Shown one piece after another: positions 7,037 through 29,555 of a DNA stretch of 64,000 nucleotides; positions within the stretch are counted from its first letter, which is position 1, and each line of letters opens with the position of its first letter. Both the position numbers and the translations under genes were made by a program. Source of the stretch: Candidatus Peribacteria bacterium (GTDB lineage Bacteria; Patescibacteriota; Gracilibacteria; UBA1369; UBA12463); contig CALRDN010000002.1 of the NCBI GenBank assembly GCA_943354965.1, positions 38,029-102,028 of the forward strand, read 5' to 3'. The notes under the pieces are model-generated. The model did not search any database. It was not told where the DNA came from and was given only the letters and a program-made list of their open reading frames with translations.

Positions 7037-9013
7037 ATGGAACAAACGAACTATAGTATTACAGACCTACTCGCCTCCGCTGTCGAGACAGCCACCGGCA
7101 AGCGACCTAATATTTTACGTGCCAATATTGCCACGGCGGATTATGGATTTAATGCTTTTCAACTCAGAGAAGGTAATCAACATATCGATTCCGTTATTGC
7201 CGATGCCCGCGCCAGAATCGTCAAAACTCTTCCACAAGGCATAACCGTTTCCTCTGCAGGAACTTTCATAAATTTCAATGTTTCAAATGAACTCCTCTCG
7301 CAAACAGCGGGGAATATAGCAGAAAATCCTAGCGGTGGAATCACACCGGCCCATGACAAAACCATGGTAGAATATTTCTCACCAAATACCAATAAACCGG
7401 CTCACTTAGGCCATCTTCGCAATCTCACTCTAGGAAAAAGTCTCTCCGCAACTCTCGCCTTTCTCGGACATGACGTCCTCCAAGCCAATCTCACAAACGA
7501 CCGCGGAGCACACATTTGCAAGTCCATGCTCGACTACCAAATGTTTGGAGAAGGATCAACCCCGGAGTCGACAGGAATCAAGGGCGACCATTTCGTCGGA
7601 GATTATTATGTAAAATACGAAAAAGCCCTTCAGAAAGAAATTGCTCCAATCGTAGCCGAGCTCAGAAAAAAGCCGGAAAACGCCGCCAAGCTAGCGAGAA
7701 AAGCTGAGTTGGAAAAAGAGCTCAAGCCAATTATAGAAAGAGAGAAAGCGCAACAAGAAGCAGATAAATTAGCAAAAAAAACAACAAAAGACACGAGAGC
7801 TCCGGAAGAAAAAATGAAAATAAAAGAGTTAAAAAAAGAGTTAGAAAAATTAGGAAAAATAGATGAAGAAATAAAAGATGAGGCGAAAAAAGAATCCTCG
7901 CTCGACAAGCAAGTAAGCGCGATGCTCCTGAAATGGGAGGCGGAAGATCCTGAGATACGAGCCCTCTGGGAGCAGATGAACGGATGGGTACTGGGTGGAT
8001 TCCGAGAAACACTCGACAGGATGAACGTCCACTTTGATGTGGAATATTTTGAATCTCAAATATACAACATGGGCAGAGACATCGTCATGGATGGACTTGA
8101 AAAAGGCATTTTCGAGCGTGACCCAAGTGGAGCCGTTATAGCAGATTTACAAAAACTCGGAATTCAAAAAAATGAAGGTAAAAAAGTACTTCTCCGATCA
8201 GACGGAACCACAGTATACACCACGCAGGACCTCGCCATCGCAAAAATGAAAATGGAAGATCATAAACTCAACAACAGTTTCTATGTGGTAGCAGGTGAAC
8301 AAGATGATCACTTCCGTGCACTTTTTGGCATTTTGAAAGCGCTCGGTTATGAATGGGTCGATAAACTCAAACACTTGTCCTATGGCATGGTAGAACTTCC
8401 TGAGGGGCAAATGAAATCACGCGAAGGTACGGTCGTGGATGTTGATGATTTACTCAATGAACTACGCGATAAGGTAAAAGTTATCGCCGCAGGAAAAGGA
8501 AATGAAACCATGAGTGACGAAGACGCCGACAAGATCGGAAAGGCTGCAGCACAATATTATCTCCTCTCAGTACGACCGGAATCAGGTATGAAATTCGACC
8601 CAAAAGAATCCGTAAACTTCGAAGGAAAAACCGGTCCATATATCCTGTATCAATACGTACGAACAGGAAAAATTCTTGAGCAGGCAGATCTCTTGGAAAC
8701 AGCCCAAACAAAAACCCCAGTAGACTTCAACCTTCTTCAGGAGCCAATCGAACACGAGTTACTTCTAAAAATAGTAGAGTTCACCGAAAAAATGCGTGCC
8801 GTTCAGAAAACGATGGATCAAACCCTCATAGCCACCTACGTCTACGAACTCGCACAAACCTTCTCTAACTTCTACTCGAAGTGTCCGGTCCTAAAGGGTG
8901 ACAAAACCCCTCCAGAGCTCTCCCAGGCCCGTCTGAAGCTCGTAGAATACACGCACACACTGATCAAGCAGTCTCTCGACCTCCTCGCAATTGAGACGGT
9001 AGACAAGATGTAG
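7037..9013 (+). CDS. argS: arginyl-tRNA synthetase with a Lys/Glu-rich insertion
   Basis: HIGH motif PAHLGHLRN, MKSR (KMSKS-like) in GQMKSREGTV, and a DALR-type anticodon-binding C-terminus. A ~100-aa K/E-rich stretch lies at roughly aa 195-300. Confidence 0.9.
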   Translation: MEQTNYSITDLLASAVETATGKRPNILRANIATADYGFNAFQLREGNQHIDSVIADARARIVKTLPQGITVSSAGTFINFNVSNELLSQTAGNIAENPSGGITPAHDKTMVEYFSPNTNKPAHLGHLRNLTLGKSLSATLAFLGHDVLQANLTNDRGAHICKSMLDYQMFGEGSTPESTGIKGDHFVGDYYVKYEKALQKEIAPIVAELRKKPENAAKLARKAELEKELKPIIEREKAQQEADKLAKKTTKDTRAPEEKMKIKELKKELEKLGKIDEEIKDEAKKESSLDKQVSAMLLKWEAEDPEIRALWEQMNGWVLGGFRETLDRMNVHFDVEYFESQIYNMGRDIVMDGLEKGIFERDPSGAVIADLQKLGIQKNEGKKVLLRSDGTTVYTTQDLAIAKMKMEDHKLNNSFYVVAGEQDDHFRALFGILKALGYEWVDKLKHLSYGMVELPEGQMKSREGTVVDVDDLLNELRDKVKVIAAGKGNETMSDEDADKIGKAAAQYYLLSVRPESGMKFDPKESVNFEGKTGPYILYQYVRTGKILEQADLLETAQTKTPVDFNLLQEPIEHELLLKIVEFTEKMRAVQKTMDQTLIATYVYELAQTFSNFYSKCPVLKGDKTPPELSQARLKLVEYTHTLIKQSLDLLAIETVDKM

Positions 9014-9033: not shown

Positions 9034-10209
9034 TTATCTACCAACTTCCTCCCCCTCAATCAGCTCACGGTGAAGAGCGACTATTGCAAGTTCATAGTCA
9101 GCCTCTTGAACAACTAGCGTATAGTTACGATCTGCAGAGGTGGTAATTTCCTCAACATTAATGCCGGCTCTATCTAATACACCTGCAATATTCCGAGAAA
9201 GACCGCGCTGCTGTTTCATCCCATTGCCAATGCAGGAAACAAGAGCGACACCAGGTTGAGACATCACCGTTCCAATACGATCGAGACGACTTTCTAACTC
9301 CTCTTTTTGTGGATGATCAGCGTCTATCGTAAATGGAAATGATGATCCACCACCGAATGTAGCAGTAACGGAAATATCCAACTCTTCACAAGCCTTCAAT
9401 ACGAGACTCGCAATACCGCTTGAATGAGCCATGCGCGCAGAACTGACCGTATAGAGAATCTGATTATTTTTTCCACTAATAAATTGAACTCCCTTAGATT
9501 CAATCTGTTCTGAAACACGAGTACCCTTATCTCGAAAATCATAGATACTACGAACCTGGAGCTGAATACCTCGCTGATCCAGACCCATGAGACCGCCGGA
9601 AGTAAAAGCGCGAGGACCATTAAGAGTAGATAACTCTAGCGCCTCACGGAAACTCATTCGTTTCTGGCGTCGAACGTGTTGAAAACCATCACGCATTTCT
9701 GGAGTATACCCCGGCTCAACAATGGAAGGATCGGCAGAAAAAACACCAGGAAGCTCTCCAAAAACCTTAACGCGAATATGATCAGAACTTGCCCCAATAC
9801 GAGTCAATGCTGCCGCCAAAATACCGGCATGAGCATCTATGCCATCAAAACCAAATGTATGACCGTGAATACCGGAAAGACGGCCGAGAACCGGGGTTTT
9901 GGAATCAGACTCTAATAAACTTCGAAGATTCGAATCTCCAATTTGATCGACTGCAAGGTGAAAAGCTTCCTCGCTCGTCATATCACAAACCTCACTGGGA
10001 TCATAACGATCAGATACATTTCTGACATCTACTAACACAAATTCATCCATAAGATCCTTAAGCACATCTGCGGAACTTGCGACAACAACGGGAGTTCGCA
10101 TTCTAGTTTCATGGGTAAGTACCTGCTTCACTCGAGCAGGATGAGCCTTCACCAAATCATCAGATAAAGGAAGAATCGTATAATTAGTAGATGCAATTCG
10201 ATCGTTCAT
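9034..10209 (-). CDS. aspartate-kinase-like protein (amino acid kinase domain plus two ACT domains) with a divergent N-terminus
   Basis: LPGVFSADPSIV corresponds to the aspartokinase DVxGVxTxDPR motif. The C-terminal ACT region is ALVSCIGNGMKQQRGLSRNIAGVLDRAGINVEEI. The ATG at 10209 is preferred over the track's TTG at 10218. The KFGGTS-type N-terminal motif is not recognisable. Confidence 0.6.
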   Translation of the reverse strand: MNDRIASTNYTILPLSDDLVKAHPARVKQVLTHETRMRTPVVVASSADVLKDLMDEFVLVDVRNVSDRYDPSEVCDMTSEEAFHLAVDQIGDSNLRSLLESDSKTPVLGRLSGIHGHTFGFDGIDAHAGILAAALTRIGASSDHIRVKVFGELPGVFSADPSIVEPGYTPEMRDGFQHVRRQKRMSFREALELSTLNGPRAFTSGGLMGLDQRGIQLQVRSIYDFRDKGTRVSEQIESKGVQFISGKNNQILYTVSSARMAHSSGIASLVLKACEELDISVTATFGGGSSFPFTIDADHPQKEELESRLDRIGTVMSQPGVALVSCIGNGMKQQRGLSRNIAGVLDRAGINVEEITTSADRNYTLVVQEADYELAIVALHRELIEGEEVGR

Positions 10210-10303
10210 AAAGCTCAAGTAAGAAATAAAAACAGGCCGGCAATATAATACAAATATGACAAACAGTCAATAATTGCTGTATTGGAAGCTGAAATAAAAA
10301 GAC

Positions 10304-12598
10304 TTATTCGCCCGACTCTAGAGGAATCTCCCTTGGAGTTCCCTCGCCGCTTACGTCGGCACAACCGCTACATACTAATTTCACATCACCCTCCTTGGAG
10401 GTTTTTTCCGTGATAAGCATGCCACATTTCTTGCACAACTCCCCTGTTGGCTTATCCCAAACCGCATTCTTACAATCAGGGTATTTATTACATCCATAGA
10501 AAGCCTTTCGTGTTTTCTTGGAGAATCGCTTAATCATCGAACCCTTGCCACACTTAGGACACTTGATAGCATTTGGATCATCGATAGAGACGATATTCTT
10601 ACACTTCGGATAGTTCGTACAGCCGAGGAATGAGCCAAAACGACTCGTCTTCACCGCCATATCACTTCCACACTTTTCACACTTTGTACCTTTTAACTTC
10701 TCCTCAAGATCTTTCTGTTCCTGTGTTTTTTCTTTTACGACAAGCGGTCTCTTAAATTTACATTCAGGATAATTGGTACAGGCGTAGAACTTTCCAAACC
10801 GTCCGAATTTAATCTGCAACGCATTGGAACATTCAGGGCACTTTTCTTCCGTTGACTCCGTAGTAATGTCGTCCTTCTTAATCGTCTCATTTTTCTCAAC
10901 AATCAATTTATGAAATGGCTCATAGAAGTCGCGAATCAATGGTACCCAGGCCTGCTTGCCCTCAGCAACCTTATCCAAACCTTCTTCCATTTCCGCCGTA
11001 AATTTGTAATCAACAATTTTCGGAAAGTGCTCAACCAAGAGATCCGTTACGAGCATTCCTAAATCAGTAGGCTTCAAAACTTTTCCATCTTTCTCAACAT
11101 ACAAACGCGCAATAATCGTAGAAATTGTCGGAGCATACGTACTCGGACGACCAATTCCCTCGGACTCAAGCTTCTTTACCAATGCTGCTTCGGTATATCG
11201 TGCAGGCGGTTTGGTGAAATGTTGTTCCGGCAAAAGTTCCTTCAAATCGACAGATTCATCTTTCTTCAAAAGTGGAAGAAGTTTTTCTCCATCTTTTTCC
11301 TCATCCTCTTCCTGATCATTTCCCTCCATATATACCTTCATGAATCCAGGGAAGACAACGGTCTGACCTGTAGCACGGAAGTTATACTGCTTGTGATTGT
11401 CAGGGGTAATATCCGCACCAACTTGCTTCAAAATAGCCTCAGCCATCTGACAAGCAACCGTGCGCTTCCATACTAACTCATAGAGATTAAACTGATCCTT
11501 GCTCAAATCGGACTTTACCTTGAACGGCTCGATCGACATATCTACCGGACGGATAGCTTCGTGAGCTTCCTGAGCACCCTTCTTTGATTTGAATTTGCGA
11601 GCAGTAGGGAGAAGATATTCTTTTCCATATAACTCCGTAATAATAGCATTGGCCTGCTCAATTGCGACATCAGACAAATTCGTAGAATCAGTACGCATGT
11701 AGGTAATAAGCGCTGTAGGCTTACCATCAACATCAACACCTTCGTACATTTGCTGTGCTACCATCATCGTCTTCTTTACCGAGAAACCAAGCTTACGAGA
11801 ACACTCTTGCTGTAATGTAGAAGTCGTAAACGGTGCAGCCGGTGAGCGCTTCACATCTTTTTCATCAACATTCGTTACCGTGAACGTATCTTTCTTAATT
11901 TCATCATGAATCACATTTGCATCCACTCCGTTTGTAACCTTCGCCTCCTTACCATTAATCTTCGTAAGAGCTGCGCGGAACTTTTCATCTCTTTTTGTAA
12001 GAAAATCAGCCGTCAAACTCCAATATTCATTAGGGACAAAAGCGAGGATTTCTCGCTCTCTATCCACAACTAAGCGAGTAGCGACACTTTGTACACGACC
12101 GGCCGAGAGACCATAACGAACCTTCTTCCACAATAATGGAGAAAGCTCATAACCCACCAATCTATCCAAAACACGTCGAGCCTGCTGGGCATCGATCATA
12201 TCCTGAAAAAGTTGTCGTGGATGTTTGATCGCCTCGAGAATAGCCTTCTCTGTAATTTCATGAAAAACGATTCTCTCTACTTTATTCTTCTTTGGATTAA
12301 TTTTGAGCGCCTCCAATAAATGCCATCCAATAGCCTCCCCTTCTCGGTCCTCATCAGTTGCCACCCAAATATTCGTATCCTTATCTATAAACGATTTAAG
12401 TTCGGTAATAACTTTTTTCTTATCCGGTGAAATTAAATATTCCGGGGCAAAATCATGCTCAATATCAACACCCATCTTCGATTTAGGAAGATCACGGACG
12501 TGTCCCATGGATGCACGAACCACGAAATTCTTGCTTAAAAAGCGCGAAATCGTCTTCGCTTTTGCAGGGGACTCTACGATAACAAGGTCTTTTGCCAT
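10304..12598 (-). CDS. topA: DNA topoisomerase I
   Basis: Toprim N-terminus MAKDLVIVESPAKAKTI. Several C-terminal CxxC..CxxC zinc ribbons. The ATG at 12598 is preferred over the track's TTG at 12634. Confidence 0.95.
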   Translation of the reverse strand: MAKDLVIVESPAKAKTISRFLSKNFVVRASMGHVRDLPKSKMGVDIEHDFAPEYLISPDKKKVITELKSFIDKDTNIWVATDEDREGEAIGWHLLEALKINPKKNKVERIVFHEITEKAILEAIKHPRQLFQDMIDAQQARRVLDRLVGYELSPLLWKKVRYGLSAGRVQSVATRLVVDREREILAFVPNEYWSLTADFLTKRDEKFRAALTKINGKEAKVTNGVDANVIHDEIKKDTFTVTNVDEKDVKRSPAAPFTTSTLQQECSRKLGFSVKKTMMVAQQMYEGVDVDGKPTALITYMRTDSTNLSDVAIEQANAIITELYGKEYLLPTARKFKSKKGAQEAHEAIRPVDMSIEPFKVKSDLSKDQFNLYELVWKRTVACQMAEAILKQVGADITPDNHKQYNFRATGQTVVFPGFMKVYMEGNDQEEDEEKDGEKLLPLLKKDESVDLKELLPEQHFTKPPARYTEAALVKKLESEGIGRPSTYAPTISTIIARLYVEKDGKVLKPTDLGMLVTDLLVEHFPKIVDYKFTAEMEEGLDKVAEGKQAWVPLIRDFYEPFHKLIVEKNETIKKDDITTESTEEKCPECSNALQIKFGRFGKFYACTNYPECKFKRPLVVKEKTQEQKDLEEKLKGTKCEKCGSDMAVKTSRFGSFLGCTNYPKCKNIVSIDDPNAIKCPKCGKGSMIKRFSKKTRKAFYGCNKYPDCKNAVWDKPTGELCKKCGMLITEKTSKEGDVKLVCSGCADVSGEGTPREIPLESGE

Positions 12599-12606
12599 AC
12601 CATCTG

Positions 12607-12634
12607 ATTGTATTGAGAATTCGCTCGCTGTCAA
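12607..12634 (-). promoter_or_regulatory. sigma70 consensus promoter TTGACA-N16-TACAAT, 8 nt upstream of the topA ATG
   Basis: The reverse complement of 12599..12634 reads TTGACAgcgagcgaattctcaaTACAATcagatggt, then ATG. Confidence 0.6.
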
Positions 12635-12738
12635 ATGAAGAGTGCAATTTTGGCTTTAAAAAAGGGAAATTTGCGGTCTTGAAGAAAACAAAATTTGACA
12701 AAATGGCAAACAAACGCCAAAATAGAGACGTCTTAAAA

Positions 12739-12807
12739 ATGCACATGCAACATTCAGTCAACACTTTCGGATATTACTTTTGGAACTTCAACAACGTGAA
12801 GGCCTAG
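12739..12807 (+). CDS. candidate 22-aa aromatic-rich leader peptide (MHMQHSVNTFGYYFWNFNNVKA)
   Basis: The short ORF lies in the topA/aroA divergent gap. Codons 12766..12789 encode F-G-Y-Y-F-W-N-F. An in-frame alternative ATG at 12703 would give 34 aa. Possible promoter: TTGACA 12695-12700 with caaaat at 12718-12723. Confidence 0.4.
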   Translation: MHMQHSVNTFGYYFWNFNNVKA

Positions 12808-12831
12808 AGTGTTATGCGAAATTTCTTCCTC

Positions 12832-12857
12832 AAGGCCCTCACGAAAGGGCTTTTTTT
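12832..12857 (+). terminator. intrinsic terminator / attenuator hairpin directly upstream of aroA
   Basis: Stem 12832-12839 (aaggccct) pairs with 12846-12853 (agggcttt), loop cacgaa, and seven T at 12851-12857. It ends 11 nt before the aroA ATG at 12869. Confidence 0.55.
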
Positions 12858-12868
12858 ATGCTTATATT

Positions 12869-14737
12869 ATGAAACTTATCGTCGAACCAACATTACGAAT
12901 TGAGGGTGAAGTCACTCCCCCACCATCCAAATCACACAGCGTGAGAGCGCTTCTATTAGCCACGTTAGCGCGGGGCACATCCACGCTAAAAAATATTTTA
13001 GAAGCTTCCGACACACGTGCCGCTATGGATGTTTGTAGAAAGCTCGGGGCAAAAATTACCTGCGTAAAAAATGCGACAGGAGGATTGGACTGCACGGTTG
13101 AGAGTAATGGAGCCCCACTTCAAACAGATGAAACAGAAATCTTTTCAGCAAATTCAGGAATCGCGACCACATTTACTATTCCTATTTTAGGGCTGAGAAA
13201 AGAGACAAAACACTCTATGATACTCTCATGCGGAGAGCAGATGATGCAGCGACCGATCGATACCATTCTCGATGCCGTTACGAAACTTGGATTAAAAATA
13301 AAAAGTACAAACGGGCACTGTCCGCTAAAAATATCAGGAGCATTAATCGGTAGTGAAATAGAAATTGATGGAACAAACTCTCAAAACGTATCAGCCCTTC
13401 TACTCGCACTTCCTCTCGCACCAAACACATCTATTATAAACGTAAAAAATCTGCAGGAACGTCCATATGTCGAGATGACGTTGCGATGTTTGGATGAGCA
13501 ACATATTACATACACACATACTCACAGTGGAGATATCGATCAGTTCACCATACCCGGGAACCAAATCTACAAGCCATTTGAAAAGACTACACCGGGTGAT
13601 TTTTCATCAGCATCCTACATCATTGCCGCTGCAGTTTTACTCCCGGGGCATGTAATTATTGATACGATGGACATGGCCGATTCGCAAGGAGACAAGCGGT
13701 TGATCACGATTCTGCAAGAGATGGGAGCGCACATAAAAATTGAAGGGAAAACAATCGTAATTGATGGTGGACACCCTCTCGCTGGCCAAGAAATCGACTG
13801 CAGTGATATTCCGGATATGGTGCCAACACTCGCGGTTATTGCCACGCAGGCTGAAGGAAAAACAACACTTACAAATGTCGGTCACGCCCGAATCAAGGAA
13901 ACTGATCGGCTAAAATCCATGGCAACTGAACTCAAAAAAATGGGAGCTAATATCGAGGAACACGCAACCTCGCTCGTCATATATCACAGCCGGCTCTTCT
14001 GTGCATCGCTCGACGGATACAACGATCACAGAACCATAATGGCACTCGCCATAGCCAGCCTTCTGCCTACTGACGGAGCAAGCAAAATCACAACAGCAGA
14101 GGGAATGGACAAGACATTTCCTAACTTCACCACCACTATGAACACTCTCGGCACAAAAATGCATACGGCTCAGCAGAGTTGTCCCTTGGGGACTTCAAGC
14201 CCTAAACATCTCATCCTCATCGGCTTCAAAAATGCCGGAAAAACGACAATCGGTCAGGATCTGGCCAAAAGACTTGGTCTACCATTCCGAGACCTGGATG
14301 AAAAAATCATCGCACATCATGAGAATATTTCAGGTAAAAAACAAAGTTGTAGAGAAATAATGAACGAGTACGGAGAAACATTTTTCAGAGATATGGAACG
14401 TATTGTTCTTGGGGAAGTCACAGCATCTCCCGACGTCAGCATTATCGCCCTAGGCGGAGGAACTCCGATAGTGGAAGAAAACCGTCCACTTCTCACTCCT
14501 CATCACGTTATTCACATTTCTGCCCCAAAGAGTATCGTGTTCGAGCGAATTATGATCAACGGCAAACCAGCGTTCTTCCCACAGGGCCAAGACGCCTTTA
14601 TCAGCTTCCAGGAGCTATGGAATTCCAGGGAGCCTATATTCGAAAAACTTGCTACAATGACCATCCACAACAACGGCTCTATCAAGGAATCTGTAGAAAG
14701 TATCCTACGACAACTCGTTATCAAAACCACCATATGA
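12869..14737 (+). CDS. aroA: bifunctional EPSP synthase / shikimate kinase (AroA-AroK fusion)
   Basis: The N-terminal part has PPSKSHSVRALLLATLA and the EPSP synthase fold. The C-terminal ~170 aa carry a P-loop LIGFKNAGKTTIGQDLAKRLGLPFRDLD, typical of shikimate kinase. The start was moved to ATG 12869, downstream of the terminator. Confidence 0.9.
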   Translation: MKLIVEPTLRIEGEVTPPPSKSHSVRALLLATLARGTSTLKNILEASDTRAAMDVCRKLGAKITCVKNATGGLDCTVESNGAPLQTDETEIFSANSGIATTFTIPILGLRKETKHSMILSCGEQMMQRPIDTILDAVTKLGLKIKSTNGHCPLKISGALIGSEIEIDGTNSQNVSALLLALPLAPNTSIINVKNLQERPYVEMTLRCLDEQHITYTHTHSGDIDQFTIPGNQIYKPFEKTTPGDFSSASYIIAAAVLLPGHVIIDTMDMADSQGDKRLITILQEMGAHIKIEGKTIVIDGGHPLAGQEIDCSDIPDMVPTLAVIATQAEGKTTLTNVGHARIKETDRLKSMATELKKMGANIEEHATSLVIYHSRLFCASLDGYNDHRTIMALAIASLLPTDGASKITTAEGMDKTFPNFTTTMNTLGTKMHTAQQSCPLGTSSPKHLILIGFKNAGKTTIGQDLAKRLGLPFRDLDEKIIAHHENISGKKQSCREIMNEYGETFFRDMERIVLGEVTASPDVSIIALGGGTPIVEENRPLLTPHHVIHISAPKSIVFERIMINGKPAFFPQGQDAFISFQELWNSREPIFEKLATMTIHNNGSIKESVESILRQLVIKTTI

Positions 14738-15180
14738 AAACCATCCTCCTCATTCACGGACCAAATTTAAATCTCTTAGGAAAACGTGATCAAGCTCACT
14801 ATGGCTCACTTACATTAAAAAAATTAGAAGCAATAGTGAAGGCGGAAGCAAAAGTACTGGGCTATCGAATCCTGCCATTCCAGTCCAACCACGAAGGAGA
14901 ACTAATTGATTTTATTCAAAAGAATTCAGAAAAAACAGATGGAATACTTATCAATCCTGGAGCACTCACGCACTATAGTTATTCGCTCCATGATGCCATA
15001 ATCGACGCACGGATACCGACCGTAGAAGTTCACCTCTCCGACATAAACAAAAGAGAATCCTGGAGAAAAATATCAGTAACAAAACCTGCCTGCATCGGGC
15101 AAAAATTCGGCAAGAAAGAAAAAAGTTATCTAGAAGGACTCACATTACTGCATAAAAAATTGACCACCAAAAAATCATGA
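14734..15180 (+). CDS. aroQ: type II 3-dehydroquinate dehydratase
   Basis: MKTILLIHGPNLNLLGKRD..HYG. ATGA overlap with the aroA-aroK stop. Confidence 0.9.
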   Translation: MKTILLIHGPNLNLLGKRDQAHYGSLTLKKLEAIVKAEAKVLGYRILPFQSNHEGELIDFIQKNSEKTDGILINPGALTHYSYSLHDAIIDARIPTVEVHLSDINKRESWRKISVTKPACIGQKFGKKEKSYLEGLTLLHKKLTTKKS

Positions 15181-16223
15181 ACGTTACTATTATTAAACAA
15201 CTTCCCACGGCGGAAGAAATCATACAGGCATTTCCCCTCTCAGAGACCGCGCACATGCAAGTAGCACGCGATCAGCAGGAGGTAAAAGATATTATTTCCG
15301 GAAAAGACAATCGCATGATCGTCATTGTCGGCCCATGCTCGGCATGGCCATTTGACGCGACGCTCACCTATGCAAAAAAGCTAAAGACACTCGAAGAAAA
15401 GCTCAAGGACAAGCTGAAAATCATCATGCGGGTATACATCCAAAAACCACGAACCAGCAAGGGCTGGACCGGCCCAATCAACCAGCCAAATCCATTCACC
15501 GAACCGGACATCGCACAGGGTATTCGTTACAGTCGCGACATTATGGTAAGAATTATTGAGATGGGATTGCCAATATCAGATGAGTCCGTTTTCACACACA
15601 ATGCAAAGGGCTTCAACGAGCTTCTTGCGTGGGTAGCAATCGGTGCACGTAGCACCGAAGATCAAGAACACCGCGTATTTGCATCCTGTATCGACGCTCC
15701 CGTTGGTATGAAAAATCCAACAAGTGGTAACCTGGAAATTGGCGTAAATAGTATCATCGCCGCTCAAGCACAACACACCGCCGTGTTCCATGGAGCGCAA
15801 GTGCAGACCCATGGAAATCCGTATGCACATCTCGTTTTGCGAGGTGGACTCGATCAACCAAACTACCACGTAGAAGATCTCTACACCGCGAAAAAACAGC
15901 TAGAAATAGCCAAAGTGAGCAACCCTGCCGTAATCATTGATGCGAGTCATGACAACTGCAAAGTAAATGGTGCGAAAGACCCGGCACAGCAGATGAACGT
16001 CATCCGTGAGGTACTCACGACGCTAAAAGAACATCCTGATTTACAACCGCTCATAAAAGGATTCATGATTGAAAGCTTCATAAAAGGAGGCTGTCAAAAA
16101 GTAGAAAAACTCACCTCGGAAACAATTGATCTTGATGGACTTTCTATCACTGATCCATGTCTCAGCTGGGAACAAACAGAAAATATTTTAAACACCATTG
16201 CTCATGAACACCACATTGCTTAA
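15177..16223 (+). CDS. aroG: 3-deoxy-7-phosphoheptulonate (DAHP) synthase, class I
   Basis: Motifs seen: IVGPCS, KPRTSKGWTG, IDASHDN. ATGA overlap with the aroQ stop. Confidence 0.9.
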   Translation: MNVTIIKQLPTAEEIIQAFPLSETAHMQVARDQQEVKDIISGKDNRMIVIVGPCSAWPFDATLTYAKKLKTLEEKLKDKLKIIMRVYIQKPRTSKGWTGPINQPNPFTEPDIAQGIRYSRDIMVRIIEMGLPISDESVFTHNAKGFNELLAWVAIGARSTEDQEHRVFASCIDAPVGMKNPTSGNLEIGVNSIIAAQAQHTAVFHGAQVQTHGNPYAHLVLRGGLDQPNYHVEDLYTAKKQLEIAKVSNPAVIIDASHDNCKVNGAKDPAQQMNVIREVLTTLKEHPDLQPLIKGFMIESFIKGGCQKVEKLTSETIDLDGLSITDPCLSWEQTENILNTIAHEHHIA

Positions 16224-17331
16224 TGTAAAATTACCGCAGCCAGAAGCCATAAAATACCAAGTTAATATTGGAACCGAATTAATAAAAAAAATCCCATCTC
16301 TTCTTGGGACACTTACTCCTGTTGCACGATATATTATCATCACGGACACCATGATGAACAATATATATGGCACTGCAATAATAAATATATTTAAAAAAGC
16401 CGATCTGCAAGCAGATATCATAACGTTCCCAGCAGGAGAAAAAAATAAGACTGAGGCAACCCATAGGAAGCTCACGCATAAAATGTTACAGAAAAAATGT
16501 GGACGCGACACGATGATTATCGCACTTGGCGGAGGTGTGGTCGGAGACACAGCGGGATACGTTGCCGCAACGTATATGAGAGGCATTCCATATATCAATA
16601 TCCCAACATCATTTCTTGCCATGGTGGACAGTTCGATAGGTGGAAAAGTTGGTGTAGATACGAAATTTGGGAAAAATCTTATCGGTGCGTTTTGGCATCC
16701 AGAAGCAGTAATAGTTGATATTGATTATTTAAAAAAACTCCCACAAACTCAACTCGTAAATGGTCTCATGGAGTCCATAAAGATATTTCTTACATATAAT
16801 AAAGAAATGCTTGAAATGGTAGAAAATAATTGGAAAAAAGTTTTGAAAAAAGATTTAAGTCTTCTTCAGAAAATCATCGCGCGTTCCATCGAACTAAAAA
16901 TAGGTGTTGTCACAAGAGATGAGCACGAAGCCAATGAACGCATGGTGGTAAACTGGGGACATACGATCGGGCATGCCATCGAACATCTAAGTAATTTTTC
17001 CTTCGGACACGGGTACTGCGTAGGATATGGCATCCTAGTCGAAAGTAAAATCGCAGAATTAATGGGAGTACTATCAATCGAAGATTTTGAGAAAGTATGC
17101 GAGATGATGCATGGATTCGGAATTACAAAAAAAGCACTCAAGGACATACTCAAAAAATTCAGTATACAAGCCATTGTCAAACAGACGCTCATTGATAAAA
17201 AAGCACGAAATGGAAAAGTAAAATACGTACTTCTAGAAAAAATCGGATCAGTAAAAACAACAAAAGGAATGTTCGGACATGAAATTGATAAAAACATGGT
17301 TAAAAAAGCACTCACATACTTCACAAAATAA
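16204..17331 (+). CDS. aroB: 3-dehydroquinate synthase
   Basis: LGGGVVGDTAGYVAATYMRGIPYINIPTS and the GHTIGHAIE metal site. ATG at 16204; the track's start at 16198 is TTG. Confidence 0.9.
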   Translation: MNTTLLNVKLPQPEAIKYQVNIGTELIKKIPSLLGTLTPVARYIIITDTMMNNIYGTAIINIFKKADLQADIITFPAGEKNKTEATHRKLTHKMLQKKCGRDTMIIALGGGVVGDTAGYVAATYMRGIPYINIPTSFLAMVDSSIGGKVGVDTKFGKNLIGAFWHPEAVIVDIDYLKKLPQTQLVNGLMESIKIFLTYNKEMLEMVENNWKKVLKKDLSLLQKIIARSIELKIGVVTRDEHEANERMVVNWGHTIGHAIEHLSNFSFGHGYCVGYGILVESKIAELMGVLSIEDFEKVCEMMHGFGITKKALKDILKKFSIQAIVKQTLIDKKARNGKVKYVLLEKIGSVKTTKGMFGHEIDKNMVKKALTYFTK

Positions 17332-17335
17332 TACT

Positions 17336-18427
17336 ATGGCAGGAAATACATTCGGAAAATTATTTCAAATCACTACATTCGGAGAGTCTCATGGAGACGG
17401 AATCGGCGTTGTGATCGATGGATGTCCTGCGGGACTCGAGATAACTCGTGAAGAAATTCAAAAAGAGCTCGACCGACGCAAGCCTGGAACAAGCCACTTA
17501 ACAACACCACGTCAGGAAAAAGATCAGGTAGAAATGCTATCGGGAATATTTGAAGGGAAGACAATGGGAACGCCAATTGCACTGCTCATCAGAAACCAAG
17601 ATCAGATTCCTGCAGTCTACGAACCAATAAAAGACCTCTACAGGCCGGGACATGCAGATGCAACTTACGATGCAAAATATGGCATGCGAGATTGGAGAGG
17701 TGGCGGGCGCGCCTCTGCACGGGAGACGATCGGCCGCGTAGCGGCCGGCGCCATCGCCAAAAAACTGCTTGCACACGCCGGAATACAAATCACGGGATAC
17801 GTGACACAAATTGGAAACGTGAAAATTACACAAGTAGATGAAAGTACTATTACAACCAATCCCCTCAACTGCCCCGACGCAACCGTGCTCGATGCGATGA
17901 TTCAGGAGATCGAGACCGCGCGCAAAGACCTCGATTCCGTTGGCGGAATAGTAGAAATCATCGCGCGCGGAGTCCCCGCAGGCCTCGGCGAACCCGTTTT
18001 CGACAAACTCTCCGCCGATCTCGCCCATGGCATCATAAGTATACCCGCCGTAAAAGGCATCGAAATCGGTGACGGCTTTGCATGCGCATCCAAACACGGC
18101 AGCGAAAATAACGACGAGTGGGCACTCAAAAACGACAACAATAATAACTCCCACATCGGCACGACCACCAATCACGCCGGCGGTATCATCGGAGGAATCA
18201 GTAACGGAGAAGATATCCTCCTACGTTTCGCCCTTAAGCCTACCTCAAGCATAGCGAAAAAACAGCAAACGGTAGATAGAAACGGCACATCAGCCGAAAT
18301 CGAAGTCCATGGTCGTCACGACCCATGCGTTGCACCTCGTGCCGTCCCGGTTGGAGAAGCTATGGTCGCCCTCGTTCTCGCGGATCACTACCTCCGCAAC
18401 AAAATAAGCCGAATAGAAACTCTATGA
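17336..18427 (+). CDS. aroC: chorismate synthase
   Basis: [20 protein letters not shown] and [14 protein letters not shown]. The start was re-placed to ATG 17336, just after the aroB stop. Confidence 0.95.
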
Positions 18428-19017
18428 AAAAAACCGCACCACACCAATCATCACCATCAACTTGCATCTCCGTTTCAGGAGCCCCGGGATCTTTCTCAGA
18501 AGAAGCCGCGCTGCTCTACGCGCAACGCCACGCCATCGCCAATCCGAAAATAGTCTTCTCAATCGACATGGAGGGAGTCCTCACATCACTCGACAAAAAA
18601 CAATCAGACATTGGAATTTTCCCAGTTGTAAATTCAAGAGGTGGCCTCGTACAAACTGCATTTAAAGCTATGGGAAAGCACGTATTCACCTACACGGACG
18701 AACTCTGGCTCGAAGTCTACCAATGCCTCATGACATTACCCGGCACCACCAAAAAGCAGATCAAAAAAATAGCGAGCCACCCACAAGCGCTATCACAATG
18801 CGAACGATACATCAGAAAAGAATTTCCAAACGCCAAACTCATCGAATGGGAAGACACAGCGAAGGCCGCAGCAGACCTCAGCAAAGGCAAATTATCAAAA
18901 GACACAGCCGTCATCGCACCAGCTCGATCTGCACAAATCTATGATCTCAAACTCATCGAAAAAGGCATTCAAGACAATCATCCCAACCTCACAACATTTA
19001 TCGCCGTCACAAAATAA
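18424..19017 (+). CDS. pheA: prephenate dehydratase catalytic domain only (no ACT domain)
   Basis: GAPGSFSEEAA, SHPQALSQC, and an ending ..NLTTFIAVTK right after the TRF-like motif. It is 197 aa. ATGA overlap with the aroC stop. Confidence 0.8.
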   Translation: MKKTAPHQSSPSTCISVSGAPGSFSEEAALLYAQRHAIANPKIVFSIDMEGVLTSLDKKQSDIGIFPVVNSRGGLVQTAFKAMGKHVFTYTDELWLEVYQCLMTLPGTTKKQIKKIASHPQALSQCERYIRKEFPNAKLIEWEDTAKAAADLSKGKLSKDTAVIAPARSAQIYDLKLIEKGIQDNHPNLTTFIAVTK

Positions 19018-19018
19018 C

Positions 19019-20005
19019 ATGAACAACAAGCCAACATTCGGCATCATCGGATTCGGACGTTTCGGAAAATTATGGGCTCAGGCCATAGAGCCATTTGGCG
19101 AAGTAAAAATTTTCGACAAGAAAAACAAGAAAAATTCACTCCTCGATACCATCAATTGCGACCTTGTTTTTCTCCTCGTTCCCATATCGGAAATGCAGTC
19201 CATCTGCAAAAAAATCGCACCACACCTCAAGCAAAACACTATCGTTATTGATGCCTGTTCCGTCAAAACACATCCGGTAAAAATGATGAAGAAATGGCTT
19301 CCTTCCAAACAGCCAATCATTGCCACGCATCCCCTGTTCGGCCCGGACTCTATTCAAAAAAATGGCTTAGCCAAGCAAAAAATAGTCATCAGTACTATTC
19401 GCGCCACCAAAGAAGAATTGGAAAAATTTGAAAGTCTTCTCAAGAAACTCCATCTCGAAATTCTCAAAACAACACCGCAAGAACACGACAAACAGATGGC
19501 GAAATCACAGGCACTTGTACATCTTCTCGGACGCGCCCTCGCGAAACTTCATCTCAAGCCGCAGGAAATTTCTACACCTGACTATCAAACACTCATACAG
19601 ATTAACAATATGGTGAATAATGACACGTGGGAGCTGTTTTATGATATGCAAAGAAAGAATCCATACGCAAAAAATATTCGAAAAGCACTCATACGCGCAC
19701 TACAGCAGTTTGAAAGCACTATTCAAGAAGGCCCGAAGAAATTCAAACCAACTATCACCTCCCTTCGTAAGAAAATAAACACCCTGGACAAAGAAATAAT
19801 CGAAACTATCAGCAAAAGATTATCAATAGTGGAGGAAATCGGAGCCCTCAAAAAACAGCAGCAAATAAAGATAAAAGACAGTACTCGTGAAAATAAACTT
19901 CACAATCTTCACGAAACTCTGGCAAAAAAGAAACACATCGACCCAAAAACAATTCACCACATATTCACCCTCCTCATGAAGGAGTCACGCCGCGCACAAT
20001 TATGA
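19019..20005 (+). CDS. tyrA: prephenate dehydrogenase fused to C-terminal AroQ-class chorismate mutase
   Basis: Rossmann motif FGIIGFGRFGKLW and HPLFGP. The C-terminal ~90 aa (LRKKINTLDKEIIETISKRLSIVEEIGALK..) are helical chorismate-mutase-type. Confidence 0.8.
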   Translation: MNNKPTFGIIGFGRFGKLWAQAIEPFGEVKIFDKKNKKNSLLDTINCDLVFLLVPISEMQSICKKIAPHLKQNTIVIDACSVKTHPVKMMKKWLPSKQPIIATHPLFGPDSIQKNGLAKQKIVISTIRATKEELEKFESLLKKLHLEILKTTPQEHDKQMAKSQALVHLLGRALAKLHLKPQEISTPDYQTLIQINNMVNNDTWELFYDMQRKNPYAKNIRKALIRALQQFESTIQEGPKKFKPTITSLRKKINTLDKEIIETISKRLSIVEEIGALKKQQQIKIKDSTRENKLHNLHETLAKKKHIDPKTIHHIFTLLMKESRRAQL

Positions 20006-21171
20006 AATTTTCCACAAAAGTACAAATCCCACCATCAGCAACGGTTACTATTAACTCAATAGCACAGCAAAAAAAGCTCGCAGGAGAGCGCATATTCAAC
20101 CTCAGTGCTGGCGAACCCATGATGAACACGGCGCAATATTTAGAAAAAGCAGTCCAAGACGCCATGCAAAATGGCCGAACGCTCTACCCGCCCGTCGCAG
20201 GGCTTCTCGATCTCCGAGAAAAGGCATCGCAGTGGATGAACACCAATTACAAAACAAATTACACGGCAAAAAATACGCTCATCACCTGTGGTGGTAAATT
20301 CGGCATATACCTGTCACTTCAGGCACTTCTCAACGACGACGATGAAGTGATTATTATCGCCCCATATTGGGTATCCTACCCATCCATGGTCAGTCTCTTC
20401 GGCGGAAAACCCGTAATTATCACAACAGAAGAAAATAATCAGTGGAAAATAAAACCTGAGGATATTCAACAAGCCTGCACCGAAAAAACAAAGATGCTCA
20501 TTCTCAACAACGCCTCGAATCCAACCGGCACACTCTATACAAAAGAAGAATTGATGTTAATACTCAAGGTAGCAAAAGAAAAAAACATCATCGTGCTTTC
20601 CGACGAGGTTTACAGCGGACTTACCTACGACGCCAAAACGTATACATCCTGCGCCTCACTCGAAAAAGACAACGACAATCTCATCGTTATTCAAAGTTGT
20701 TCCAAGAACTTCGGCATGACCGGCTGGCGAGTTGGATTTGTATTTGGATCGGAAAATCTCATAAAAATGCTCACAAAAATTCAAGGTCAAAGCATCACGG
20801 GAACGAGTATTATAAGCCAATATGCCGCAATAGCCGCCATCGAACAATCAGAAAAAATCACAGCCGAAATTCAACAGGAAATGCAATCACGCCGCGACAT
20901 ATTCACCTTCACCTTCAACGAACTATTCCGCGCAAATGTCTCTCAACCGCAATCATCACTCTACCATTTCATTCCTCTCTCTGCATTTGGAATAAAAAAT
21001 AATGATGACATTGCATTTTGCGAACAAGTATTAACAAACGCCAATATAGCACTTGTACCAGGATCCGCATTTGGCTGCGCAGGATACATAAGAACTTCCT
21101 TCGGTGCAAATAAAAATGAATTAATAGATAGTATACAAGCACTCGCCTCTCATCTCGGGTTTTCAGCTTAG
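20002..21171 (+). CDS. class I/II pyridoxal-phosphate aminotransferase (probable aromatic/aspartate aminotransferase)
   Basis: PLP-lysine context SCSKNFGMTGWRVGF and NNASNPTG. ATGA overlap with the tyrA stop. It is the last gene of the aro operon. Confidence 0.8.
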   Translation: MKFSTKVQIPPSATVTINSIAQQKKLAGERIFNLSAGEPMMNTAQYLEKAVQDAMQNGRTLYPPVAGLLDLREKASQWMNTNYKTNYTAKNTLITCGGKFGIYLSLQALLNDDDEVIIIAPYWVSYPSMVSLFGGKPVIITTEENNQWKIKPEDIQQACTEKTKMLILNNASNPTGTLYTKEELMLILKVAKEKNIIVLSDEVYSGLTYDAKTYTSCASLEKDNDNLIVIQSCSKNFGMTGWRVGFVFGSENLIKMLTKIQGQSITGTSIISQYAAIAAIEQSEKITAEIQQEMQSRRDIFTFTFNELFRANVSQPQSSLYHFIPLSAFGIKNNDDIAFCEQVLTNANIALVPGSAFGCAGYIRTSFGANKNELIDSIQALASHLGFSA

Positions 21172-21367: not shown

Positions 21368-21643
21368 ATGACAAAACAGGATTTGGTAAACTCCGCTTCT
21401 AACGTCGCAAGCGTTACGAAGAAAGCAGCTGCAGAGGTTCTCGATGCAGTTCTTGCTCACATCACTAAGTCACTCAAGCGTGGCGAAAGTGTAACAATCA
21501 CTGGTTTTGGAACATTCCGTGTTTCAAAGAGACAGGCTCGAACAGGTGTTAACCCACGAAACCCATCACAGAAGATCAAGATCCCAGCTATGAAGCTTCC
21601 AGCTTTCAAGGCCGGCAAATCTCTTAAGGATGCAGTTCGTTAA
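21368..21643 (+). CDS. hup: HU family DNA-binding protein
   Basis: 91 aa. GFGTFRVSKRQARTGVNPRNPSQKIKIPAMKLPAFKAGKSLK is the canonical HU arm. Confidence 0.9.
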   Translation: MTKQDLVNSASNVASVTKKAAAEVLDAVLAHITKSLKRGESVTITGFGTFRVSKRQARTGVNPRNPSQKIKIPAMKLPAFKAGKSLKDAVR

Positions 21644-21666
21644 ATCGATCTCGATTTCAACTATTA

Positions 21667-21696
21667 AACCCGCCCCCATAAAGGGCGGGTTTTTTG
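21667..21696 (+). terminator. intrinsic terminator after the HU gene
   Basis: aacccgccc (21667-21675), loop ccataaa, gggcgggtt, followed by a T-run. Confidence 0.8.
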
Positions 21697-21758
21697 TTAC
21701 GCAAACTATTGAAAAAAAATGAAGCATCGGGAGGTACCTTCAAACACCTCATTTTGAA

Positions 21759-21824
21759 ATGCTCACGAATTGCTAGCACCATGAGGTACAAATGCTAAGG
21801 AATTGCTAAGAAGATGCTAAGGAT
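21759..21824. repeat. six tandem 11-bp units (WTGCTAAGRAD-like) upstream of pheS
   Basis: Units start at 21759, 21770, 21781, 21792, 21803 and 21814: atgctcacgaa / ttgctagcacc / atgaggtacaa / atgctaaggaa / ttgctaagaag / atgctaaggat. Confidence 0.6.
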
Positions 21825-21884
21825 CCAAAAACACTATAAAAAGAAGGTGGAACCGGCTACGGAAACGCGGTACAATGAACCGGC

Positions 21885-22925
21885 ATGAAAGATCTAATCT
21901 TACAACTCGTCAAAGAGGCGACACTAGAAATAAACAACACGACAACTCCCGCACAACTCGAGGAGCTCAGAATTAAATATTTGGGACGCAAAGGATCATT
22001 CACGAATGTAATGCAGAACCTGAAAAGTGTTCCAAATGAAGAAAAACCAGCCATCGGGCAAGCGCTCAACGCAGCCAAAAATGAACTTGAGCAACATCTG
22101 ACCACTAAACAAAAAACATTAGAAGAAGAAGTTCTCAAGCAGCAACTCTCCGACGACTCATTCGACACAACCCGTCCAGGAACACACTATGAAACCGGGC
22201 ATATTCATCCACTTTCGCAGGTACAAAAAGAAGTGGAAGAAATTTTCAGTCAGATGGGATTTGCCATTCAGGATGGACCAGAGATTGAATCGGAATATTA
22301 CAACTTTGAGGCATTGAACGTACCAAAAGATCACCCTGCTCGAGATATGCAGGATACGTTTTTCTTGGCTGATAAGTCGCATGATCATCATGGAAGAATG
22401 GTTTTGCGCACGCAAACATCACCAGTACAAATCCGAACCATGGAGAAATTTGGTGCACCACTACGTGTCATTGTACCAGGAAGAGTATTCCGCTATGAAG
22501 CGACCGATGCCTCACACGACTCAACCTTTTATCAAGTAGAGGGACTCCTGATCGATAAAAATATTTCCCTCGCAAATTTAAAAGGAGTGATGACGGAATT
22601 TCTCACACGACTCTTCAAAAAAGAAACAAAGGTGCGATTCCGACCAGGATATTTCCCCTTCGTAGAGCCAGGAATCGAGCTCGATATGTGGTGCCTCTTA
22701 TGCAGCGGAATGGGTTGCCGAGTCTGCAAACACACCGGATGGATGGAGTTCATGGGTGCCGGAATGGTACATGCGAATGTACTAAAAGCCGGCGGCATCG
22801 ACCCGGAAGTATACCAGGGCTGGGCATTCGGATTCGGCCTCACCCGTCTCGTGATGATGAAATATGGTATTGATGATATCCGCTTACTGATGGGCGGCGA
22901 CCTTAGATTCTTAGAACAATTTTAA
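21885..22925 (+). CDS. pheS: phenylalanyl-tRNA synthetase alpha subunit
   Basis: Class II motifs HPARDMQDTF, FRPGYFPFVEPG and GAGMVHANVL. A TACAAT box lies at 21871-21876, 8 nt upstream of the ATG. Confidence 0.95.
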   Translation: MKDLILQLVKEATLEINNTTTPAQLEELRIKYLGRKGSFTNVMQNLKSVPNEEKPAIGQALNAAKNELEQHLTTKQKTLEEEVLKQQLSDDSFDTTRPGTHYETGHIHPLSQVQKEVEEIFSQMGFAIQDGPEIESEYYNFEALNVPKDHPARDMQDTFFLADKSHDHHGRMVLRTQTSPVQIRTMEKFGAPLRVIVPGRVFRYEATDASHDSTFYQVEGLLIDKNISLANLKGVMTEFLTRLFKKETKVRFRPGYFPFVEPGIELDMWCLLCSGMGCRVCKHTGWMEFMGAGMVHANVLKAGGIDPEVYQGWAFGFGLTRLVMMKYGIDDIRLLMGGDLRFLEQF

Positions 22926-29195: not shown

Positions 29196-29317
29196 AGCCT
29201 TATTCTAAGCTGAATTTGACAAAATAGGCAAACTTTTTACATCCAAAGCTAGACAAAGCTAAGCAAAAATGATATAATAGAACCAATCCTTAAAAAGTAT
29301 CTCTTAATTCTCCTCCT

Positions 29318-29497
29318 ATGATTGCTTTCTGTCCAAAATGCTGGAAGAACACACACGGTGCCGAGAGCATGCGTGAAATGAAGGATGTTCAGTTCGTTAC
29401 CATGAAAAATGGTCGACGAGCAGCAAAGGGTACTTGCTCAGTCTGCGGACGAGGCATGTACAAGATTGTAAAAACTTCTGAAGCTCCTGCTGCTTAA
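29318..29497 (+). CDS. 59-aa zinc-ribbon protein, DUF5679-like (below the ORF-track length cutoff)
   Basis: Own translation: MIAFCPKCWKNTHGAESMREMKDVQFVTMKNGRRAAKGTCSVCGRGMYKIVKTSEAPAA. It has a CPKC...CSVCG ribbon with a VTMKNGR core. An upstream TGaTATAAT lies at 29270-29278 and a terminator lies downstream. Confidence 0.6.
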   Translation: MIAFCPKCWKNTHGAESMREMKDVQFVTMKNGRRAAKGTCSVCGRGMYKIVKTSEAPAA

Positions 29498-29528
29498 GTT
29501 TGGAACATTCACAACCAGTATAAAAAAG

Positions 29529-29555
29529 CCTTCATCAAACCATGAGGGTTTTTTT
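29529..29555 (+). terminator. intrinsic terminator after the small zinc-ribbon gene
   Basis: Stem ccttcat (29529-29535) pairs with atgaggg (29542-29548), loop caaacc, and seven T at 29549-29555. Confidence 0.65.

Follow-up and report, generated by a model that had tools for sequence, protein, structure and literature searches.

How does a bacterium of the candidate phyla radiation (CPR), ultra-small organisms widely held to be amino acid auxotrophs, control the expression of an operon for aromatic amino acids? The question is raised by a contig of a Candidatus Peribacteria bacterium (CALRDN010000002.1), of which a stretch of 64,000 nucleotides, hereafter the window, was analyzed. In this stretch an operon yielding chorismate, phenylalanine and tyrosine (12869-21171) is preceded by a short open reading frame (ORF) rich in aromatic codons and by a hairpin followed by U residues, both within the 270-bp gap between the divergent topA (start codon 12598, minus strand) and aroA (ATG 12869). 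An initial annotation, made from the sequence alone, had described this gap, and on re-reading its coordinates are correct. It is very probable, in our judgment, that the element is a classical ribosome-mediated (leader-peptide) transcription attenuator, which would set the whole aro-phe-tyr operon by the supply of charged aromatic tRNA.

The leader and its alternative helices

The features involved in this proposal are listed below with their positions in the window.

12695-12700, plus strand: -35 hexamer TTGACA, from a consensus scan, at a conserved position
12718-12723, plus strand: -10 hexamer CAAAAT, from a consensus scan
12739-12807, plus strand: leader ORF, ATG 12739 to TAG 12807, encoding MHMQHSVNTFGYYFWNFNNVKA
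12766-12789, plus strand: putative regulatory codon run F10-G-Y-Y-F-W-N-F17 (TTC GGA TAT TAC TTT TGG AAC TTC)
12765-12790, plus strand: region 1, 5' arm of the 1:2 hairpin (anti-antiterminator and possible pause hairpin), from minimum free energy (MFE) and centroid folds
12797-12821, plus strand: region 2, 3' arm of the 1:2 hairpin, containing the leader stop codon (12805-12807)
12795-12809, plus strand: antiterminator 5' arm CGUGA-A-GGCCU-A-GAG, inside region 2 and including the invariant TGAAGGCNTAGAG
12829-12843, plus strand: antiterminator 3' arm CUC-A-AGGCC-C-UCACG, overlapping the terminator 5' arm and loop
12832-12853, plus strand: predicted intrinsic terminator hairpin, regions 3 and 4, AAGGCCCU cacgaa AGGGCUUU
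12851-12857, plus strand: U7 tract, from the sequence and a consensus scan
12858-12872, plus strand: mini-ORF ATG CTT ATA TTA TGA, whose stop overlaps the aroA start (ATGA)
12869-21171, plus strand: putatively regulated operon, from Pfam, with gene order as in relatives

The promoter-like site matches the consensus at 10 of 12 positions with a 17-nt spacer. In the relatives, TTTGAC is invariant in seven of eight aligned loci, TTGACA is found in loci of a second leader subfamily too, and the -10 equivalents (TAGAGT, TAGAAT, TATACT, TAAACT) lie 9-21 nt before the leader ATG. Transcription is predicted to start near 12730, which would leave a 5' untranslated region of about 9-15 nt without a Shine-Dalgarno sequence. 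The missing Shine-Dalgarno sequence was considered as an argument against leader translation and rejected as uninformative, because nearly all genes of the window likewise lack it (the motif is present in 5 of 51). As a separate observation, the promoter region of a small zinc-ribbon gene (29319-29497), ATTTGACAAAATAGGCAAAC at 29213-29232, is almost identical to that of the leader, ATTTGACAAAATGGCAAAC at 12692-12710; a regulatory site, or an extended -35 context common to both, may account for the likeness.

The ORF from ATG 12739 to TAG 12807 had been noted in the initial annotation, and the frame stands, with a different start. The conserved ATG is that at 12745, invariant in the 11 sequences of the subfamily to which the window belongs (subfamily 1), and it gives the 20-codon peptide MQHSVNTFGYYFWNFNNVKA; ATG 12739 reads ACG in the closest relative, L001. 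Six of the eight codons at 12766-12789 are aromatic, as read directly from the sequence and as had been stated.

The unconstrained fold of the leader consists of the 1:2 hairpin (12765-12790 with 12797-12821) and the terminator, and the whole leader folds with a z-score of -2.4 against its shuffles. Region 1 overlaps the aromatic codons. The third helix, in which 12795-12809 pairs with 12829-12843, is a 13-bp interrupted antiterminator of 5+5+3 pairs. Under a ribosome constraint at codons 11-15 the antiterminator fold reaches -18.7 kcal/mol, compared with -10.3 kcal/mol for the terminator alone, and as a duplex it reaches -21.3 kcal/mol (z = -4.0 against shuffles). A 5-bp GGCCU/AGGCC antiterminator had been suspected earlier; the pairing is there, and it is the middle block of the longer helix. 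The mutual exclusion of the folds, which the initial annotation had left to a folding calculation, thus came out stronger than noted in fold, constrained fold and duplex. The terminator stem (12832-12839 with 12846-12853) has 8 pairs, including one G-U, and a 6-nt loop, and the U7 tract ends 11 nt before the aroA ATG; the same terminator had been reported before and was returned by the consensus scan. It ends no upstream gene, because topA is divergent.

How the helices depend on the position of a ribosome was analyzed with an equilibrium masking model, in which the RNA from its 5' end up to 10 nt past the A-site codon may not pair. For the free RNA and for a ribosome on early codons the terminator probability is 0.92. 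It is 0.32 with the A site at F10, drops to 0.00-0.05 on codons 11-15 (G11, Y12, Y13, F14, W15), and then recovers to 0.59 at N16, 0.82 at F17 and 0.90-0.92 from codon 18 onwards, being 0.92 at the stop. The MFE structure in the low-probability states is the antiterminator helix 12795-12809/12829-12843. In the geometry of the model, the antiterminator is freed only with the A site on codons 11-15 and is masked at or near the stop. With assumed footprints from 7 to 16 nt past the A site, the set of codons that permits read-through shifts by one or two positions; codons 12-14 belong to it (probability <0.1) at all these footprints, and W15 does so up to 13 nt. The combined pattern (on in the free RNA, on at the stop, off on the aromatic codons) was given by 0 of 300 dinucleotide shuffles of 12739-12831.

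The mini-ORF begins directly after the U tract of the terminator and has 4 codons; aroA itself lacks a Shine-Dalgarno sequence. The ATG...ATGA arrangement occurs in 7 of the 11 subfamily-1 loci with 4 or 11 codons (4 in L001, L161, L002, L162 and L003; 11 in L167). In L081 and L168 the mini-ORF stops 3-7 nt before the aroA ATG, and it is absent from L009 and L165. Its role may be to couple translation into aroA by termination and reinitiation.

Leaders in related loci

The region upstream of aroA was inspected in more than 160 related loci from genome, metagenome and Logan assemblies. A short ORF with a run of Phe, Tyr and Trp codons precedes aroA in 28 loci besides the window, which brings the leaders to 29. 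The loci carry the labels Peregrinibacteria/Peribacteria, Gracilibacteria, Uhrbacteria, Magasanikbacteria, Parcubacteria and 'Saccharibacteria', and some are metagenome-assembled genomes (MAGs) labelled Gammaproteobacteria. Conservation of such an ORF together with a terminator, proposed as a check in the initial annotation, is therefore seen in relatives. Where AroA is at least 44% identical, 30 of 53 loci have the ORF within 400 nt, 22 of the 30 with a terminator. Where AroA is more distant, it is present in 1 of 104 loci, a CPR-labelled one that belongs to subfamily 2. The nucleotides of the hairpins differ between groups of leaders; what persists is the reading frame with its start, its stop and its aromatic run.

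Subfamily 1 comprises 11 distinct sequences (the window, L001, L161, L002, L162, L003, L009, L081, L165, L167 and L168), with peptides such as that of the window, MNNLAKTQNWFYFYNFTHLKA and MNNSFKTYGYFFYNFSNLKA. Besides the invariant segment of the antiterminator they share a GCC(C/T)T...A(G/A)GGC terminator. Their insertions and deletions are of 3 nt (multiples of 3) inside the ORF and of 1-4 nt after its stop. The 13 sequences of subfamily 2 are labelled Uhrbacteria, Magasanikbacteria, Parcubacteria, 'Saccharibacteria', Peribacteria or Gammaproteobacteria, or carry no label. Their peptides differ (e.g., MIKKQASYFYFWSNLTEALFSVSA, MKTFSAAYFWFYFTPSVRR, MNREQQSFYFYFWKTS) and their helices are distinct (CCGAGG...TTGTT, AACAAGAACCTCGG, GAGGTTC followed by Ts), with the terminator in the same position. 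The third group consists of five Legionellales-type loci (L022, L023, L028, L032, L085), whose leaders have no recognisable GC-rich intrinsic terminator. The leader peptides of these Legionellales/Coxiellaceae-type MAGs are longer (...CRFTSYQxxSFFFYFWPQGQ*) and lie 60-130 nt upstream of aroA; a hairpin TTGGCC-CCAA-GGCCAA covers their last codons, and a long-range complement AATACTC...GAGTATT adjoins the aroA start. In these loci the same sensor may have taken a translational or Rho-dependent form.

All 29 leaders have at least two Phe codons and 28 have at least one Tyr codon. Exactly one Trp codon is present in 18, none in 11 and two in none. Phe, Tyr and Trp interchange between leaders, and the core positions remain aromatic. 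The earlier statement that one peptide would sense all three residues is therefore apt for the window and does not extend to the whole family, because Trp is absent from 11 of the 29 leaders.

Masking and duplex analyses were made sequence by sequence on the 21 leaders with a detectable terminator, because MAFFT placed some sequences wrongly in the terminator region (L161, L002). Both the fall and the recovery of the terminator probability lie on the aromatic run or directly behind it in 20 of these leaders, although their sequences are quite different. An antiterminator duplex overlapping the terminator 5' arm was found in all 21, at -15.8 to -28.4 kcal/mol (z from -2.3 to -7.9). Region 3 occurs as AAGGCCCT, GCCTTC, AAGAACCTC, CCTCCG, CCCTCTG, CCCCA or CCTCGC, and regions 2 and 4 change alongside. 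For the 13 sequences of subfamily 2, RNAalifold returned the antiterminator as the consensus, with double-sided changes in 6 of 6 pairs. Pairing of the 1:2 helix and terminator in subfamily 1 amounts to 98.4%, compared with 40-61% in slid controls, with two compensatory pairs and a covariation score reached by 0 of 500 shuffles, in an alignment that was fitted to the structure under test. RNAalifold recovered the core of the 1:2 hairpin in relatives with one compensatory pair (C-G to G-C), which couples TAC (Tyr) or TGG (Trp) to the synonymous third base of an Ala codon, GCG or GCC. The compensatory pair of the terminator is U-A to C-G. The antiterminator is paired in 83% of cells in 11 relatives, compared with 34-60% in slid controls.

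A search with model R1, built from subfamily 1, found a single copy of the element in the window (12745-12862) and no second one. The same model gave weak full-length matches exactly on three subfamily-2 leaders (E = 0.016-0.65).

Proposed mechanism and competing explanations

The proposed attenuator would work as follows. Transcription would begin at the TTGACA/-10 promoter near 12730, and a ribosome would load on the short 5' end lacking a Shine-Dalgarno sequence and translate the leader of 20-22 codons. With Phe-, Tyr- and Trp-tRNA in ample supply, the ribosome would reach the stop at 12805-12807 and cover region 2 (here 12795-12821). Region 3 could then pair with region 4, forming the terminator at 12832-12853 with its U7 tract, and polymerase would halt 11 nt before aroA. 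Under shortage of an aromatic aminoacyl-tRNA, the ribosome is expected to stall with its A site on codons 11-15 (GYYFW), so that region 1 (12765-12790) would be covered and region 2 free. Regions 2 and 3 would pair (12795-12809 with 12829-12843), no terminator would form, and polymerase would read into aroA. If no translation takes place, the 1:2 hairpin (12765-12821) is predicted to sequester region 2, and the terminator would form. A promoter and ORF, cognate codons, a terminator, an antiterminator, a suitable geometry and a 1:2 hairpin were all found, in the sequence or in the model; the last of these, present in the window, is weaker than the antiterminator in some relatives.

Several points weigh against this proposal. 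The support comes from sequence and models: where transcription starts, whether the ORF is translated and that polymerase terminates at 12857 are predictions. Gly and Asn codons interrupt the aromatic run, the leader of the window has a single Trp codon, and the 11 leaders without Trp have to be considered as well. The terminator stem is short (four G-C, U-A, G-U and two A-U pairs) and its energy is about -10 kcal/mol. The masking model describes an equilibrium and not co-transcriptional folding; in it the terminator of L013 never opens, and the free RNA of L002, L003, L004, L006 and L017 favours the antiterminator, so the 1:2 'default-off' state is not universal. The fitting of the subfamily-1 alignment to the tested structure also reduces the weight of its covariation. 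Since the antiterminator helix hardly varies within subfamily 1, its column-wise covariation in that subfamily does not exceed that of shuffles (56 of 500 by paired cells, 108 of 500 by score).

Could the hairpins switch without a ribosome? A protein (TRAP-, PyrR- or TyrR-like), a tRNA (T-box) or a small ligand would then stabilise one of them, and the aromatic ORF would be a by-product of a U-rich structured leader; we consider this explanation, in both its parts, improbable. Part of the nucleotide conservation could indeed be structural, since the aromatic codons sit in a conserved helix (region 1), and the operator-like inverted repeat in the loci L005 and L007 suggests that in this clade the operon can be under the control of a protein. 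However, no T-box, riboswitch or other Rfam match was obtained on the leader here or on those in 13 related loci, and the leader RNA is just about 125 nt long. The helices change wholly across subfamilies, whereas the ATG, the frame, the aromatic run and the stop beside region 2 persist; the Tyr and Trp codons are frame-specific and go beyond U-richness; and the switch point of the masking model follows the aromatic run in 20 of 21 leaders. The repeat itself stands apart as an observation. L005 and L007 (~8940-8990) have no leader ORF, and between their divergent trpE and aroA lies the perfect inverted repeat ATACTCTTGTAATGATACA(G/A)CGTTACAAGAGTAT, which looks like a protein operator; if it is one, the sensing system of the same operon would have been switched in these two loci.

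A similarly low probability is given to a nascent-peptide or translational sensor, in which the leader would act as an arrest peptide (like TnaC or SecM), or stalling would expose the aroA start or the mini-ORF, so that translation or the access of Rho would be the main point of control. The hairpin and U tract 11 nt from an aroA start without a Shine-Dalgarno sequence, the mini-ORF that runs into the aroA ATG in 7 of 11 close relatives, and the five Legionellales-type leaders without a recognisable intrinsic terminator are all compatible with such control. It is opposed by the 6-8 U residues after the hairpin in the window and 21 relatives, a signature of intrinsic terminators, and by the peptide outside the aromatic run, which is unconserved between subfamilies and so speaks against a specific arrest peptide; moreover, induction by amino acid excess would have the wrong sign for a biosynthetic operon. 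Least probable of all, and very unlikely in our view, is that a short ORF lies by chance beside a leaky or constitutive terminator, or belongs to an independent small-protein or small-RNA gene, with no regulatory role. AT-rich genomes do yield ORFs of this kind: in random 600-nt windows of the genomes compared, an ORF with at least 5 of 8 aromatic codons occurs in 7.1% and one with at least 6 of 8 in 1.35%. Yet adding a terminator (within 120 nt for the stricter class) leaves 0.5% and 0.25%, respectively, the recurrence before aroA differs sharply between close and distant loci (30/53 vs 1/104), and the three-state behaviour was met in 0 of 300 shuffles. The comparative data already contradict this last explanation. 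Leader-peptide attenuation of transcription remains the reading that we prefer.

Comparison with known elements points to the same class of regulator. A permissive Rfam search of 12300-13200 gave a sub-threshold Phe_leader match and noise only. The Phe_leader model (RF01859) aligns end to end at 12744-12859 with 21.9 bits (E = 0.52), below its gathering score of 55, so that the leader does not qualify as a member of that family. No T-box or riboswitch match appeared in 12300-13200 even at E up to 10, nor in the 13 related loci, where a search at the gathering threshold gave nothing on the leaders and only a tmRNA in L081. To our knowledge, and judged from Rfam rather than from a literature search, the element has not been described before.

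The initial annotation likened the layout to the trpL, pheL and pheM attenuators, and the likeness of the elements is upheld by folding and comparison. In E. coli pheL-pheA, too, a short ORF with an aromatic run, hairpins 1:2, 2:3 and 3:4 and a terminator stand directly before an aromatic gene. The pheL peptide has Phe codons only (7 of 15) and controls pheA alone; in contrast, the leader of the window mixes Phe, Tyr and Trp, precedes 8 ORFs for the common pathway and the Phe and Tyr branches, and belongs to a CPR bacterium without Shine-Dalgarno sequences. In pheM-pheST and trpL-trpEDCBA of E. coli, stalling on aromatic codons likewise selects the antiterminator over the terminator, and the pheM peptide contains one Tyr besides its Phe residues; what they control is different (a tRNA synthetase and the Trp branch), and there is no sequence similarity to the leader described here. 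The enterobacterial ilvL (ilvGMEDA) and thrL show that one leader can carry codons for several amino acids sharing a pathway, shortage of any of which relieves termination. They sense branched-chain amino acids or Thr and Ile, are unrelated in sequence and are confined to Proteobacteria.

In Corynebacterium glutamicum, a leader peptide upstream of aroF (cg1129), named aroR, was found by RNA-seq (PMC3890552). Like the leader of the window, it precedes a common-pathway gene (DAHP synthase); unlike it, it belongs to Actinobacteria and controls aroF and a neighbour instead of a complete 8-ORF pathway operon. Work of Neshat and co-workers from 2014 in J Biotechnol reportedly gives aroR the regulatory motif F-Y-F, with mixed aromatic sensing. 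Its three regulatory codons compare with a run of 5-7 here, and the two are likened by description, not by sequence. Because of the C. glutamicum aroF leader, mixed aromatic sensing of a common-pathway gene is not unprecedented. As of 2010, leader-peptide systems were said to be documented in no phyla beyond Proteobacteria and Actinobacteria, to which a Firmicutes case was then added (PMC2965389), and attenuators of this type have been predicted in Actinobacteria (PMC1262725). The feature is in effect a new sequence family within a well-known regulator class and mechanistically textbook; its host group (CPR) is unexpected, and the operon that it would control is unusually complete.

The operon, its setting and significance

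According to Pfam, the operon encodes, in order, an EPSP synthase-shikimate kinase fusion (aroA-aroK), type II dehydroquinase (aroQ), DAHP synthase, DHQ synthase (aroB), chorismate synthase (aroC), prephenate dehydratase, a prephenate dehydrogenase-chorismate mutase fusion and an aminotransferase. These are 8 ORFs, two of them fusions, with 10 activities, and not the nine genes initially counted. Other statements of that annotation hold: prephenate dehydratase lacks an ACT domain (Pfam), and aroE is missing from the operon. A search detected no aroE in the operon or elsewhere within the 64-kb window. Related operons mostly carry it between aroQ and the DAHP synthase gene (e.g., L017, 11234-12034), and the gene order aroA(K)-aroQ-aroE-DAHP synthase-aroB-aroC-prephenate dehydratase-prephenate dehydrogenase/chorismate mutase-aminotransferase is common to CPR-labelled and Gammaproteobacteria-labelled loci. 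Among the loci compared, the gap is confined to the window's own clade, aroE having been lost at the aroQ/DAHP synthase junction (15177-15180) in the window and its closest relatives L001, L002, L003 and L161. As it appears from the sequence, the encoded pathway is one step short, unless aroE sits elsewhere in the genome.

The closest AroA-AroK homologues (84-90% identity) come from MAGs titled Candidatus Peregrinibacteria or Peribacteria, the latter being a class of Candidatus Peregrinibacteriota, and in these the topA-aroA synteny is kept, with TopA 97-98% identical. Recent horizontal acquisition was considered on the basis of composition and rejected, as the operon (44.0% GC) gives no signal against the window (43.7%). 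Compared with L001-L003, the flanking TopA, HU and PheS (10304-12598, 21368-22925) are 97-100% identical and the proteins of the operon just 82-96%. The leader peptide also diverges markedly from that of these relatives (MQHSVNTFGYYFWNF... vs MNNIAKAQNWFYFYNF...). Either faster evolution of operon and leader than of their surroundings or strain-to-strain exchange might account for this.

Some further observations concern the neighbourhood. The 394-aa ORF adjoining topA (9034-10218, minus strand) is aspartokinase-like; Pfam recognises C-terminal ACT domains only and identified no catalytic domain in it, and the ORF is syntenic in L002, L003 and L161. No Phe leader was seen upstream of pheS in the pheS/pheT genes downstream (from 21885). 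The sole other plus-strand terminator abutting a gene start (29523-29554) was dismissed as merely ending the zinc-ribbon gene. In many genes of the window a TATAAT-like box lies 6-10 nt 5' of the ATG (e.g., 35923-36915, 42175-42672, 46081-47187, 61331-61933), which suggests that leaderless or near-leaderless mRNAs are widespread in this genome. The related CPR-type loci are equally poor in Shine-Dalgarno sequences; the Legionellales-type loci have the motif in 40-50% of ORFs. L017 carries the label Gammaproteobacteria, possibly in error, since with 1 of 17 it resembles the CPR loci in this respect.

Leaders with Trp codons were observed in relatives. In L006 (~8586-8675, minus strand), a leader with ...LSWWWTL... 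and a terminator precede trpE-trpG-trpD-trpC, as the divergent neighbour of the aro leader; in L033 (~1749-1880), ...SAWGWAA... and a terminator precede trpE; and in L017 (6962-7075), ...TSWWTTTRW and a terminator precede the gene of a TrpB-like pyridoxal phosphate enzyme. These leaders before trp genes suggest that leader-peptide attenuation is a general habit of these lineages, and where a trp operon exists, Trp appears to have its own sensor.

On balance we lean, with reserve, towards a wider interpretation, in which these leaders form a widely conserved, previously undescribed 'aro leader' attenuator family in Patescibacteria/CPR. It would have at least two structural subfamilies and a terminator-less Legionellales-type variant, and would travel with an aroA(K)-aroQ-(aroE)-aroG-aroB-aroC-pheA-tyrA/chorismate mutase-aminotransferase cassette. 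Alignment A5, model R1 and the subfamily-2 sequences could serve as the seed of a new RNA family and would improve the annotation of many MAGs. The design is compact: one short peptide would integrate the supply of Phe, Tyr and sometimes Trp and gate the common pathway and two terminal branches.

The described Peribacteria genomes of this group are reported to have very few amino acid biosynthesis genes and to make almost no amino acids (PMC4736985). If the aromatic pathway of these Peregrinibacteria is regulated as proposed, it is probably a functional biosynthetic capacity. The proposed mechanism would extend textbook leader-peptide attenuation to bacteria of the candidate phyla radiation and would imply tight transcription-translation coupling on nearly leaderless mRNAs without Shine-Dalgarno sequences. 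If true, it would be, together with the neighbouring Trp leaders, the first evidence that such coupling regulates amino acid biosynthesis in these ultra-small, Shine-Dalgarno-poor bacteria.

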